DNA of 64,000 nucleotides from Rhizomicrobium sp. (lineage in GTDB: Bacteria > Pseudomonadota > Alphaproteobacteria > Micropepsales > Micropepsaceae): assembly GCA_050008635.1 (NCBI GenBank), contig JBEKMG010000009.1:28368-92367 (forward strand), given 5' to 3'. Of this stretch, positions 1 through 3,831 are shown piece after piece; the first letter of the stretch is position 1, and each line of letters starts with the position of its first letter. The position numbers and the translations under genes were made by a program. The notes below the pieces were generated by a model, which saw nothing but the letters and a program-made list of their open reading frames with translations, was not told the origin of the DNA and ran no database searches.

Positions 1-2
1 CG

Positions 3-575
3 ATCCTGATCGCGGTTTCCGCCTTCGGCTTCGCGGTGTGGCCGGCGGTCGTTTTCGGCCCCAAGTACCTGCAGGACACGCTGCATTTCACGCCGCCGCA
101 AACCAGCTTGCTGATTGTTCTGGGTGGGCTTCTCGCCGTGATCTTCAACATTCTGGCGGGACGGCTCAGCGATAAAATCGGGCGCAAGAGCGTTACCATC
201 GCCACCGCTCTGATCGCGATGCTGTGCTACGGGACGTTCTACAGCGGGATTCACTGGCAGTACCTGGCCTTGATGTGGGTGCCGGGGTTCTTCGGATTCT
301 TGTGCTCCGACGCATTGATTGCGAGCTTATCCGCCGAGCTGTTTCCGACTGCCTATCGCGCCACGGTTTCGGGCTTGCGCTATCTGGTGGGGATTCTGTC
401 CGGTGCCGTCAGCCTGGCTTTGGAAGGCCCACTCTACGATCTGTTCCACGCGCACGGCCCGGCGCTGATGCTTTTGCTGGCGGCGATGCCGGTGGCGGCG
501 ATCGCGATCCTGCGCCTGCCCGAACCCGCCGGGCGGACCCTGGAAGACATCGCGGCCCAACCGGATAGGAAATAA
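3..575 (+). CDS. MFS transporter, C-terminal part (start lies before the window)
   Basis: Open frame from the window edge. Multiple TM segments, MFS loop motif GRLSDKIGRK, and ELFPTAYRAT motif. Confidence 0.85.
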   Translation: MLIAVSAFGFAVWPAVVFGPKYLQDTLHFTPPQTSLLIVLGGLLAVIFNILAGRLSDKIGRKSVTIATALIAMLCYGTFYSGIHWQYLALMWVPGFFGFLCSDALIASLSAELFPTAYRATVSGLRYLVGILSGAVSLALEGPLYDLFHAHGPALMLLLAAMPVAAIAILRLPEPAGRTLEDIAAQPDRK

Positions 576-624
576 AACCCCCATACCGCACTATTGACAA
601 TTGTTTTCTGATGATATTTTATAG

Positions 625-973
625 CTTCGAACACTGGATAGTTCGTTAGGGACGAGAACGCTCATTTCGAGAATGCTCGTTTGAGGCGAAATAGCCGGTG
701 TCTGTAAAGGTAGGCGGATCGGGTTTGCCGGGTTTTTCAGACCCTATTCCGCGATTGTAACTTCTGGTCTCTTCGAGACCGCTAACTAATGAAAGCAACG
801 TAGTCAGGAACCATCGGTCGCAAGCCACTGGTAGCCCGGATCAGAAAATCTGGTGGCCGAAACACCCTGACTTCGTTGGCATGCAAAACACTCTCGGAGT
901 TCCGAGGGGTGTTGCAGGTCGACGAAGTCAATGGACCCGCAACACCTAAAAATTAGGCGAGGTTGCGTGTCCA
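625..973 (+). ncRNA. Candidate structured non-coding RNA or long 5' leader, family unknown
   Basis: Consecutive hairpins with G-U pairs: 628-645, 651-681, 714-752, 766-780, 796-878 or alternatively 868-930, and 932-973. Upstream TTGACA at 594-599. No credible ORF. Strand assumed from G-U pairing and the downstream genes. Confidence 0.5.
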
Positions 974-1297
974 ATGAAATACTTGGTCGTCCACTACGAA
1001 TTTGAAGGCTTACGGTGCGATTTAGATTCTTCGGTGCCGCCCCCCGCTGTGCCTACGAGTGCAGTGAACTCAGTAGTCCTGATTTTTCTCGTCAGTTCGC
1101 TCGCGGCACTTTTCGGGACTGGAATCTACGGCATCGTCTTCAAAGACTATGTGCCAATCCTATGCGTTTGGGCCGTTTGTGGTCCGGTGCTAACGCCAAT
1201 TGTCAAACGCTATGTCGGGCCGTTTGATGGGTGGAACTTTGATGCTGGATCAATCGGGAAAAGTGGAATTCAAGCGGGTCCAAATCGACCTTCCTAA
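974..1297 (+). CDS. Small membrane protein with two predicted TM helices
   Basis: ORF with two hydrophobic stretches (VVLIFLVSSLAALFGTGIYGIVF; YVPILCVWAVCGPVLTPIV). Start codon uncertain. Confidence 0.55.
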   Translation: MKYLVVHYEFEGLRCDLDSSVPPPAVPTSAVNSVVLIFLVSSLAALFGTGIYGIVFKDYVPILCVWAVCGPVLTPIVKRYVGPFDGWNFDAGSIGKSGIQAGPNRPS

Positions 1298-1478
1298 ACG
1301 TGCATACGAGCGCCTAGTGAAGCTAAAGGGCGCAACAGAATCCTCTTCATATGCGGATGTCCTCAGAAACGCATTATCGATTTATGCAGCCATCGTTTCG
1401 ATTATGGATGGTGGCGGCGCAATAATGGTGAAACAACCAGACGGAAGCGTCGTGCCGGCATATTTCATTTCGCGGTAA
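1242..1478 (+). CDS. Ribbon-helix-helix (CopG-like) DNA-binding protein
   Basis: [35 protein letters not shown] has the alternating beta-strand plus two-helix RHH pattern. ATG at 1242 chosen within ORF 1200..1478. Confidence 0.65.
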
Positions 1479-1552
1479 CCACCACGAAACTTGTGCGCCG
1501 AACCACGTGCCGCTTGCCCCCTCCCCCCGGCTTGCTTATAAGCCGGGTTTTG

Positions 1553-2524
1553 ATGAGCCCGGCCGACGCCGCCCTTCCGATCCTCAAAACCAGCCATCTG
1601 CTTGGCATCGAAGGCCTTTCGGTCGGCGAGATCACCGGCCTGCTCGATTTGGGTGACGAATACGTCACGCTCGGCCGCGCCAAAGAGAAGAAGTCGCCCC
1701 TGCTCAAGGGCCGCACGGTCATCAACCTGTTCTTCGAAGCCTCCACGCGCACCCAAAGCTCGTTCGAGCTGGCGGGCAAGCGGCTGGGCGCCGACGTGAT
1801 GAACATGTCGGTGCGTACCTCGTCGGTTTCCAAGGGCGAAACGCTGATCGACACGGCCACCACCCTCAATGCCATGCGCCCGGACATCCTCATCGTGCGC
1901 CATCAGGATTCGGGCGCGGCCGAGATGCTGGCGCGCAAGCTCGATTGCTGCGTGGTGAACGCCGGCGACGGCAGCCACGAACATCCGACGCAGGCCTTGC
2001 TCGACGCGCTTACCATCCGTCGGCGGCGGCGTTCTCTCGCAGGGCTGACGGTGGCGATTTGCGGCGACGTGGCGCACAGCCGCGTGGCGCGCTCCAACAT
2101 CCATCTGCTGTCGAAGATGGGTGCGCGGGTCCGCCTGATTGCGCCGCGCACCTTATTGCCCGCCGCGGCGGAGCGCTTCGGCGTCGAAATCTTCACCGAC
2201 ATGCGCGAAGGGCTGAATGGCGTGGACATCGTGATGATGCTGCGCCTGCAGATGGAGCGCATGACCGGTGCCTTCATCCCTTCCACCCGCGAATATTTCC
2301 GCTTCTGGGGGCTGGACCGCGAGAAGCTCGCCTTCGCCAAGCCGGGCGCGCTGGTGATGCATCCGGGGCCGATGAACCGCGGTGTGGAAATCGACTCCGC
2401 CGTCGCCGACGACATCGAAGTCAGCCTGATCCACGAACAGGTAGAGATGGGCGTCGCCATCCGCATGGCGGTGCTGGACGCGCTGTCGCGCGGGCTCTCG
2501 GCCGAGGGGCGCAACGCGCCATGA
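1553..2524 (+). CDS. pyrB: Aspartate carbamoyltransferase catalytic subunit
   Basis: Motifs [16 protein letters not shown] and HPGP; ATG at 1553. Confidence 0.97.
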
Positions 2525-3831
2525 GCAACCGGCGAACCGTTTTCTGCAATGCGCGGCTGATCGATCCGGCCAGCGGACTGGACGCCAAGGGCGGGCTGCT
2601 GGTGGAAAATGGCAAGATCGCCGACATCGGTCCGCGCCTGTTCGGCGACACCGAGCGCAACGATCCCGAGACCGTCGACTGCAAGGGACTGGTGCTGGCG
2701 CCCGGCCTGATCGACATGCGCGTGTTCACCGGCGAGCCGGGCAGCGAACATCGCGAGACGCTGGAATCCGCCAGCCGCGCGGCCGCGGCGGGCGGCGTCA
2801 CCACCATCGTCGTCATGCCGAACACCGATCCGGTGATCGACGAGCCGTCGCTGGTGGATTTCATCCGCCGCCGGGCGCAGGCGACGGCTTCAGTGCGCGT
2901 CGCGCCAATGGCCGCGCTGACCCGCCATCTGGCGGGCGAAGTAATGACCGAGATGGGTCTGCTCAAGGAAGCGGGCGCAGTGGCGTTCACCGACGGCGAC
3001 CGCACCATCGCCAACACGCGCGTGCTGCGCCGGGCGCTGGCCTACGCCTCGACCTTCGGCGTGCTGGTGGTGGGCCATGCGGAAGATCCCGATCTCACCG
3101 AAGGCGCTTCGCTGACCGAAGGCGAATATGCGATGCGGCTGGGCCTTCCCGCCGCCCCCGCCGCCGCCGAGACGATGATCGTGGAGCGCGACATCCGCCT
3201 CGTGGAGCTGACCGGCGCGCGCTATCATTTCGGGCAGATTTCCTGCCGCGCCTCGCTGGAGGCGATTGCGGCGGCGAAAGGGCGCGGCCTGCCGATCACT
3301 TGCGGCGTCGCGGCCCATCATCTGGCGCTGAACGAGTTGGACGTCGGCCCCTACTACACCTTCATGAAAGTGAAGCCGCCGCTGCGCTCGGAAGCCGACC
3401 GCGCCGCGATGGTGGAAGGCGTCGCCTCCGGCGCCATCGACGTGATCGTCTCCAGCCATGATCCGCAGGCCGCCGACACCAAGCGCCAGCCGTTCGCTCA
3501 AGCCGCTTTCGGCGCGGTGGGACTGGAAACGCTGCTGCCCGTGGCGCTCGGCCTTTATCACGACGGCCGCGCCAGCCTTGACCATGTGCTGAAGGCGCTG
3601 ACGCAGACGCCCGCGTCCATCCTCGGGCTCAATGCGGGGACGCTGGCCAAGGGGGCGCCGGCGGACCTGGTGCTGATCGATCCGGATGCGCCCTTCGTCG
3701 TCGATCCCGACAAGCTTCATTCCCGTGCGCGCAACACGCCGTTCGAAGGCCGCAAGTTCCAGGGCCGGACGATGAAGACCTTCGTCGGCGGCGAATGCGT
3801 GTTCGACCGTTCCGCCGGGACCAGAAAATGA
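2521..3831 (+). CDS. pyrC: Dihydroorotase (or PyrC'-type)
   Basis: PGLIDM, PNTDP, KVKPPLR and SSHDP amidohydrolase motifs. Overlaps the pyrB stop (ATGA). The canonical HxH metal site reads MRV, so it may be the inactive structural type. Confidence 0.9.

Follow-up and report, generated by a model that had tools for sequence, protein, structure and literature searches.

Toxin mRNAs of type I systems, such as hok/sok of plasmid R1 and aapA/IsoA of Helicobacter pylori, encode membrane toxins and are kept inert by folding over the Shine-Dalgarno (SD) sequence; the toxins are about 30-50 amino acids (aa) long, usually under 60 aa, and have one transmembrane (TM) helix. A prophage 'moron' is a promoter-gene unit found at a prophage end, an exclusion gene for example. 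Among two-protein systems, protein antitoxins neutralise membrane-depolarising TM toxins via the segment that precedes the TM helix, as in PanT-D11:PanA and the RosmerTA toxin RmrT-D5 (PMC10440598). The genome of Rhizomicrobium sp. (assembly GCA_050008635.1) contains, between a gene of the major facilitator superfamily (MFS) and pyrB, a small islet that invites comparison with all of these: a promoter, a long structured leader RNA, a gene for a protein with two TM helices (the TM gene) and an overlapping gene for a small ribbon-helix-helix (RHH) protein. It lies near the start of the window, the 64,000-nucleotide (nt) stretch analysed here (contig JBEKMG010000009.1, positions 28,368 to 92,367 of the forward strand). 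The cassette is read, tentatively and as somewhat short of probable, as a mobile toxin-antitoxin (TA), addiction or phage-exclusion ('moron') module with translational RNA gating.

The sequence-only reading of this DNA had placed a structured region upstream of the TM gene, and the + strand of 590-980 indeed has a folding energy of -146 kcal/mol (z = -5.35), which none of 100 dinucleotide shuffles matches; the - strand of the same interval has a weaker fold (z = -3.4), and the leader taken alone has z = -5.27. That reading also raised the question of whether homologous gene pairs keep an upstream structured RNA, and they do: all comparative RNA analysis was performed on eight distinct but related sequences, and the leaders of all eight loci have z-scores of -2.9 to -6.3, each better than that of its own complement strand. 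The 3' ~180 nt of the leader are conserved, and its 5' half differs between loci both in sequence and in length. The divergent leader of locus L019 has a different sequence and is even more structured, with its SD sequence likewise paired.

By comparison of these loci, the last ~180 nt of the leader are shown as a predicted four-segment relay with two mutually exclusive folds. Segment 1 pairs with segment 0 or 2, segment 2 with 1 or 3, and segment 3 with 2 or 4, the last of which contains the SD sequence and abuts the AUG; segments 1, 2 and 3 are nearly invariant because each has two partners. The helix P1 (segments 0 and 1) encloses a variable hairpin and has 12 pairs, with 86.5% of alignment cells paired over the eight sequences and 2 pairs changed on both sides, its CAACG/CGUUG portion being nearly invariant. 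The long hairpin H2, the 5' arm of which reuses segment 1 (CUUCGUUG...) and the 3' arm of which is segment 2 (GGUGUUGCAGGUCGACGAAG), has 21 pairs (83.9% paired), including 7 with two-sided changes. Changes in the 3' arm of H2 are exclusively wobble-compatible, pair-preserving transitions, and because this variation relies on U-G pairs, H2 is specific to the + strand; a DNA cruciform, an operator or a minus-strand feature was rejected for it, the G-U pairs being kept on the + strand only. The alternative helix 2:3 has 12 pairs and 87.2% of cells paired, versus 33-48% for slid controls; its pair 147:182 is GC in five loci, UA in two and AU in one. The hairpin H3, which holds the SD sequence, is in the minimum-free-energy fold of 8 of 8 loci, with 68.7% of cells paired and 3 two-sided pair changes in an imperfect alignment.

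The OFF fold (upper P1 stem, H2 and H3) buries the SD sequence and abuts the AUG; 80% of its cells are paired and 12 two-sided changes are present, slid controls reaching 30-48% and 0 of 500 shuffles being as good. The ON fold (full P1 and helix 2:3) has 86.8% of cells paired, versus 33-48% for slid controls, and would expose the ribosome site. In constrained folding, OFF lies below ON by 4-18 kcal/mol in seven of the eight loci, so that a buried ribosome site is the expected resting state of the completed mRNA. Neither H2 nor H3 is followed by a U run, which argues for translational control rather than control by termination. The evidence for two folds from eight related sequences is moderate and not conclusive; RNA gating, as the sequence-only reading called it, is a fair label for a conserved, covarying structure that sequesters the ribosome-binding region.

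Other identities were considered for the leader. With cmscan under permissive filters, no relevant Rfam family was found for positions 1-3000 at E < 0.01; a match of a miRNA model to H2 was dismissed as chance (26 bits versus a gathering score of 80 bits), and ARAGORN found no tRNA or tmRNA. A four-codon mini-ORF (open reading frame) at 789-803 (AUG AAA GCA ACG UAG), which overlies the CAACG switch segment, was rejected as a leader peptide, not being conserved in the other loci.

The TM gene also corresponds to its earlier description as a 107-aa two-TM ORF with its ATG (974) at the foot of the last hairpin: AlphaFold models the protein with long helices at residues 28-56 and 60-81, at modest confidence (mean predicted local distance difference test score, pLDDT, 62). 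A conserved core of about 86 aa comprises an initial M-K/R-Y, an N-terminal EFEGLRCDLD segment, TM1, a KDYVP turn, TM2 and RYVGPFDGW; the tail beyond the start of the RHH gene is not conserved. An ORF in the same frame with shared motifs is present in loci L002, L004, L006, L007, L008, L011, L012, L015, L016 and L019, and is truncated in L021. In the part of the gene that does not overlap the RHH gene, the nonsynonymous difference pN is 0.36 versus a (saturated) synonymous difference pS of 0.75, and the closest pair has dN/dS of 0.05. Because pN is well under pS, the gene is evidently translated and constrained; conservation and translation of this ORF, on which the sequence-only reading had staked its case, are thus upheld by a conserved frame under purifying selection. 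When queried with the TM protein, a word-index search returned the query alone, a misleading result, since the family is often not called as a gene; homologs were recovered by six-frame reading upstream of RHH homologs and by an exhaustive profile search of 1.84 billion representatives, which yielded 64 relatives at E <= 1e-3. These are 74-132 aa long, with two hydrophobic helices and an acidic linker besides the common motif F-D/E-G-I/L-x-C-D-L-D. The protein has no match to a Pfam, NCBIfam, PHROG or PADLOC family, and a plasmid search with a member of the TM family gave no match.

The RHH gene overlaps the TM gene by 56 nt in another frame, and in L004, L012, L015 and L016 the stop codon of the TM gene abuts the RHH ATG; because the genes overlap or abut, their translation is probably coupled. 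Homologs of the RHH protein are 58-86% identical and all 77-78 aa long, the RHH protein of the more divergent L019 cassette having 85 aa. The islet protein itself falls below the Pfam thresholds (RHH_1, E = 0.12; VAPB_antitox, E = 0.03) and matches phrog_8557, a family of unassigned function, at E = 1.8e-11; PADLOC and NCBIfam gave no match, and a sequence search of the PDB returned only noise. A paralog in the same genome, 42% identical to the islet protein, passes Pfam RHH_1 with 23.4 bits against a cutoff of 20.5. The AlphaFold model of the islet protein (pLDDT 84) has helices at residues 19-32 and 37-56 and a beta hairpin, and Foldseek gives weak matches to the RHH domains of ParD2, PrpA and NikR, none of them significant, as expected for a small RHH monomer. 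The RHH assignment is made because the paralog passes RHH_1, the model shows an RHH-like fold and the Foldseek matches, although weak, point the same way; by these routes the 78-aa overlapping RHH ORF of the sequence-only reading is supported, while remaining sub-threshold in Pfam itself.

Upstream of the leader, the arrangement ATTGACA-N17-TAnnAT recurs 220-380 nt 5' of the TM start in the window, L002, L004, L006, L012, L015, L016 and L019. The promoter is predicted to be strong and of a constitutive type, and transcription is inferred to start near 629, which would give a leader of about 345 nt. A consensus promoter scanner did not call the islet promoter; this scanner demands A at position 2 of the -10 element. 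A CTGA(T/G) box lies at the equal position of the promoter spacer in the window, L006, L016 and L012, with TTGAG in L015, and the islet box TGATGATAT is one copy of the TGATGAT-type repeat that is arrayed in the promoters of the paralog operons. Autorepression is plausible because of this box and those arrays: the RHH protein may repress its own promoter through the box, a putative operator. For the autoregulation proposed earlier, the box and the paralog repeats are thus comparative support that falls short of proof.

The islet stands out from its surroundings in composition, with GC content of 0.46-0.53 over 601-1500, whereas the MFS gene has 0.60-0.65 and pyrB/pyrC 0.63-0.71; the 3' part of the MFS gene ends at a stop codon at 573-575, and the pyrB ATG is at 1553. 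The GC profile and the flank positions confirm the low-GC ~0.9-kb islet described from sequence, with its three co-oriented parts all present. Its left edge may be anywhere from 576 to about 590, and its right edge is at or before 1485, where homology to a relative (G018) resumes, seven bases past the RHH stop codon; the islet therefore spans from just upstream of the -35 element to the RHH stop codon. The DNA of 590-1500 is single-copy in its own genome and was not found by DNA-level search of 24 genomes of the same genus and 16 of the same class. The synteny of the MFS gene and pyrB is retained in the genus, and the spacer content varies between genomes. On composition and distribution the islet is evidently a horizontal acquisition, gained as one co-oriented three-part unit. 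The features are listed in the table.

Table. Features of the cassette and its borders (positions are those of the window)
Feature	Positions	Strand	Basis or detail
Sigma-70-type promoter	594..622	+	-35 TTGACA 594-599, 17-nt spacer, -10 TTTTAT 617-622
TGATGATAT box, candidate RHH operator	609..617	+	Promoter spacer
Leader 5' domain, stable hairpins	629..795	+	Fold; little sequence conservation in alignments
P1	796..878	+	Segment 0 CAACG-UAG-UCAGG 796-808 with segment 1 CCUGA-CUU-CGUUG 866-878
H2, long conserved hairpin	871..927	+	RNAalifold consensus
Alternative helix 2:3	908..946	+	GGUGUUGCAGGU 908-919 with ACCCGCAACACC 935-946; excludes H2 and H3
H3, hairpin with Shine-Dalgarno sequence	933..972	+	GAGG 959-962; ends two nucleotides before start codon
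Two-TM membrane protein gene, 107 aa	974..1297	+	Same-frame ORF in other loci
RHH protein gene, 78 aa, C-terminal beta hairpin	1242..1478	+	Homologs, phrog_8557, paralog, model
Low-GC inserted islet, whole cassette	577..1484	.	GC profile, absence in relatives, resumed homology
Host GC-rich hairpin and U run	1526..1547	+	5 nt before pyrB ATG; DNA aligning with relatives

The host hairpin lies outside the islet and is the sole terminator-like site 3' of the cassette; it could be a leader or attenuator element of pyrB. The spacer between the MFS gene and pyrB (576-1552 in the window) is occupied in three other sequences (L128, L129 and L130) by an unrelated 226-aa ORF, a 255-aa ORF or ~400 nt of unrelated non-coding DNA.

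The order promoter, leader, TM gene and RHH gene recurs in about ten further distinct loci from metagenomes and metagenome-assembled genomes (MAGs), and this arrangement is judged to be far beyond chance. Its neighbours are diverse: a replication initiator and an S24 repressor at a prophage edge (L004/L005), a serine resolvase (L021), a CAP12-PCTIR gene with a Toll/interleukin-1 receptor (TIR) domain (L019/L020), an MFS gene upstream and a lone endolysin gene 500 nt downstream (L002), and, at a shared site, a ccr-like reductase gene and DUF1684/methylmalonyl-CoA-mutase-type (ecm) genes (L012, identical to L018, with L015 and L016), a fixed position in Rhizomicrobium-like genomes, L012 coming from a Rhizomicrobium MAG. 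A recurrent location in defence islands, about which the sequence-only reading had asked, is not borne out: one of about eleven loci adjoins a TIR gene, and the rest have metabolic, prophage or resolvase contexts. One locus emerged from a peptide scan of 185,579 species, and a model of the leader RNA found one among 150 genomes of the family of the Rhizomicrobium MAG, that MAG itself. A peptide scan of IMG/VR found no cassette, and 86 RNA-pattern hits there were all rejected by the covariance model. The cassette is thus apparently rare and patchy, sometimes on mobile DNA and sometimes stably inherited.

Three of these loci have further features of their own. In L019 (3967-5010), the CAP12-PCTIR gene lies upstream, in divergent orientation, of the full cassette that has diverged furthest (100-aa TM protein and 85-aa RHH protein). 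In L002 (5237-6228), the RHH gene is followed by a GC-rich hairpin resembling a repetitive extragenic palindrome (REP-like) and then by the endolysin gene (phrog_7, E = 5e-42), outside any recognisable prophage. In L004 (5254-5994), the RHH gene at the prophage edge is directly followed by a gene for a 246-aa protein with an acidic N-terminus, one hydrophobic segment and no family match.

The paralog of the RHH protein is encoded in an operon of conserved gene order: a djlA-like gene, a gene for a 120-aa protein with one C-terminal TM helix, the RHH gene, and a gene for an Amidase_2+PG_binding_1 protein. With a family profile, this more distant RHH copy was found in 33 of 60 genomes of the same genus and in no more than 2 of 252 further genera of the class; the Rhizomicrobium MAG also holds a second pair of this core type. 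Core operons have a short leader and a strong SD sequence, without the islet-type leader RNA, and in their promoters 2-5 TGATGAT/ATCATCA repeats are grouped around the -35 and -10 elements, e.g. TTGACATTTGATGATATTATGATGATATTA. In the genome of the islet (G000), the operon is on contig 12 at about 205.3-206.1 kb (L141 2274-4580, minus strand), with tandem TGATGATATTA repeats in its promoter; the djlA-like product has TerB and DnaJ domains, the 120-aa protein begins with MSKLGVGVGEEFPVDEE, and the amidase is without an evident signal peptide.

Members of the RHH family also occur on extrachromosomal DNA. In jumbo phages (GAP32, CBB and the Ea35-70 group), phrog_8557 proteins are encoded among many small early-type genes without a two-TM partner (L022/L023, a 356-kb contig; GAP32_021 in L114). 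A distant relative (about 35% identity) is found on tiny ColE1-type plasmids of 3-5 kb, namely p72_5 of Klebsiella pneumoniae (3 kb; L112, 1-563) and a 5-kb plasmid (L113, 419-978), directly after a gene whose acidic product of 93 aa has a single hydrophobic helix at its C-terminus; the two genes are annotated as hypothetical. With hhalign, no homology of the TM family to the 93-aa plasmid partner or to the partner in the core operon was detected.

The reading of the cassette as a mobile TA, addiction or exclusion module is favoured because of its foreign composition, patchy spread, mobile-element neighbours, plasmid and phage relatives and extreme translational locking; the three-part order conserved in about eleven distinct loci also counts for it. 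On this reading the mRNA would be transcribed but translationally silent, and both proteins would be made only after a resetting of the fold, which might occur for a short time while transcription is under way or else upon processing or binding by some factor. The membrane protein would be the effector, damaging or altering the membrane; the RHH dimer would repress the promoter through the TGATGAT-type box, and its C-terminal hairpin may neutralise the membrane protein at the conserved acidic N-terminal segment, EFEGLxCDLD. The cassette would merge hok-like mRNA locking with a type II-like protein partner. That it represents a hybrid TA/exclusion class, with a two-TM toxin under an RHH autorepressor, a four-segment RNA relay and a co-translated, neutralising RHH protein, is a more specific proposition and rather unlikely; the trigger of the relay in such a class might be RNase processing, a phage factor or a stress signal, and the RHH gene might have been captured from the lineage-specific chromosomal envelope operon (djlA-TM-RHH-amidase).

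Several observations weigh against a toxic module of this kind. The closest large relative of the RHH protein is the product of a vertically inherited chromosomal gene of the djlA-TM-RHH-amidase operon, and an origin in such an operon indicates a regulatory rather than an addictive one. Four loci occupy a single metabolic site (ccr ... DUF1684/ecm) with about 60-85% identity of their RHH proteins, and this shared site therefore looks like stable vertical inheritance and not like a selfish element. Neither protein has a match in PADLOC-DB 2.0 at E <= 1 or an above-threshold match to a Pfam toxin or antitoxin, and at 86-107 aa with two helices the TM protein is larger than type I toxins. A scan of eight loci found no sigma-70-like promoter on the minus (antisense) strand, a weak test that considers sequence only. 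As for the RNA, the covariation comes from just eight related sequences, and in the window copy the GAGG is partly inside an internal loop of H3. Toxicity and a defence role of the cassette are pure inference.

The main rival explanation, possible if somewhat unlikely, is that the two genes encode a non-toxic envelope or regulatory pair, an RHH transcription factor with a membrane-anchored partner that serves as sensor, anti-repressor or regulated envelope factor. The cassette would then be a mobile, diverged copy of the djlA-TM-RHH-amidase module, with a leader that tunes translation, e.g. to temperature or growth state. The 42%-identical paralog in the same genome, situated between the genes for a membrane-anchored protein and an Amidase_2+PG_binding_1 protein, fits such a pair, as do the presence of that operon in 33 of 60 same-genus genomes and in the Rhizomicrobium MAG, the fixed ccr-ecm position of the islet type in four diverged genomes and the zero matches to the defence database; but no homology is detectable between the islet-type and core-type membrane partners (hhalign probability below 1%), the core operon has a short leader, a strong SD sequence and no islet-type RNA, the islet type is patchy, compositionally foreign here and at times on mobile elements, and no regulated target gene adjoins the islet in the window.

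It is improbable that the cassette is a holin-like or lysis-control element of phage origin, in which a class II-type holin or antiholin with two TM helices would gate export of a peptidoglycan hydrolase lacking a signal sequence and the RHH protein would be a timing regulator. Although the small two-TM topology, the lone endolysin gene (phrog_7) 500 nt downstream in L002, the location of L004 at a prophage end and the terminal amidase gene of the core paralog operon (its product has a PG-binding domain and lacks an evident signal peptide) would suit this role, only one of about eleven islet-type loci has a hydrolase gene downstream, and there the REP-like hairpin and 500 nt lie in between; the endolysin of L002 is outside any prophage, none is near the window copy, no holin family of Pfam or PHROGs is matched, and a dual-start motif was not seen. 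Very improbable is a stand-alone non-coding RNA, whether a ribonucleoprotein partner (as in OLE-OapA), a retron-like RNA or an RNA antitoxin. About 345 nt of RNA, highly structured in every locus and always accompanied by the two genes, would be consistent with one, but no terminator separates the RNA from the start of the TM gene, H2 and H3 lacking U runs; conservation lies at the 3' end, where the RNA takes in the SD sequence and reaches the AUG, and the free variation of the 5' half and of the P1-enclosed loop is unlike that of an aptamer or ribonucleoprotein core. Repeats like those of type III antitoxins are absent, as are an Rfam family at E < 0.01 and a reverse transcriptase gene. The analogies with OLE-OapA and retron-2TM systems drawn in the sequence-only reading are thus not sustained: nothing in Rfam corresponds, the islet has no reverse transcriptase ORF, and the RNA has the character of a 5' leader that carries an expression platform.

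If the favoured reading is right, the cassette introduces three new families: a switch-like leader RNA (~180 nt) with no entry in Rfam, a family of two-TM proteins without a database model and an RHH subfamily (phrog_8557) that is also present in jumbo phages and on tiny plasmids of enterobacteria. The competing-helix relay is compact and open to direct testing by reporter fusions, and the link to the djlA-TM-RHH-amidase operon draws attention to a regulator pair, envelope-associated and unstudied, in a group of Alphaproteobacteria from peat and soil. Should the cassette prove a plain regulator pair, its value is reduced to that of a new cis-regulatory RNA motif.

Compared with known systems, the cassette resembles several in part. 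With the RHH autorepressors and antitoxins (CopG, Arc/Mnt, ParD, omega) it shares a small RHH fold, a compact operon and a repeat box over its own promoter, the paralog promoter carrying 7-bp repeats in an array with a spacing of about 11 bp; it differs in belonging to a distinct family (phrog_8557) that is sub-threshold for Pfam RHH_1 and has no PDB sequence match, in the specific C-terminal beta hairpin of the islet protein and in its constant pairing with a membrane-anchored protein. Like translational riboswitches and RNA thermometers, the leader has a competing-helix expression platform that would sequester or free the SD sequence, whereas a conserved ligand-binding core is lacking, the region enclosed by P1 and the 5' domain being variable and without an Rfam match. 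The cassette is not arranged as a holin-endolysin unit, in which the TM gene lies directly upstream of an endolysin gene in a phage late region. Morons are comparable as self-contained, promoter-driven units of foreign composition, and the L004 copy is at a prophage edge; however, most copies are outside prophages, none was found in IMG/VR by the peptide or RNA-pattern scans, and the window copy is without its own terminator.

The nearest parallels are with the two classes of TA systems. As in type I toxin mRNAs, folding of the islet mRNA buries the SD sequence, which H3 holds in all eight loci, and the mutually exclusive helices suggest activation by refolding or processing; in contrast to type I toxins, the islet protein has 86-107 aa, two TM helices and a conserved N-terminal segment of 30 aa, and instead of an antisense promoter (none detected in eight loci, by a weak test) there is a co-translated protein partner. 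As in the type II systems PanT-D11:PanA and RmrT-D5 (PMC10440598), two small co-transcribed genes with a patchy distribution on mobile DNA encode a small TM protein as putative effector and a partner whose predicted contact is the N-terminal segment ahead of the TM helix, although the islet partner is an RHH protein with a short beta hairpin and not of the PanA/DUF4065 or RmrA type, the TM gene comes first behind a long switch-like leader, and toxicity and neutralisation are putative in the islet. Adjacent, co-oriented and apparently co-translated genes on patchy DNA, a trait of type II systems, are found here, with the two genes overlapping or abutting in all loci. Should the module reading prove true, the cassette would be an undescribed small mobile module that joins the mRNA locking of type I systems to a protein partner in the style of type II.

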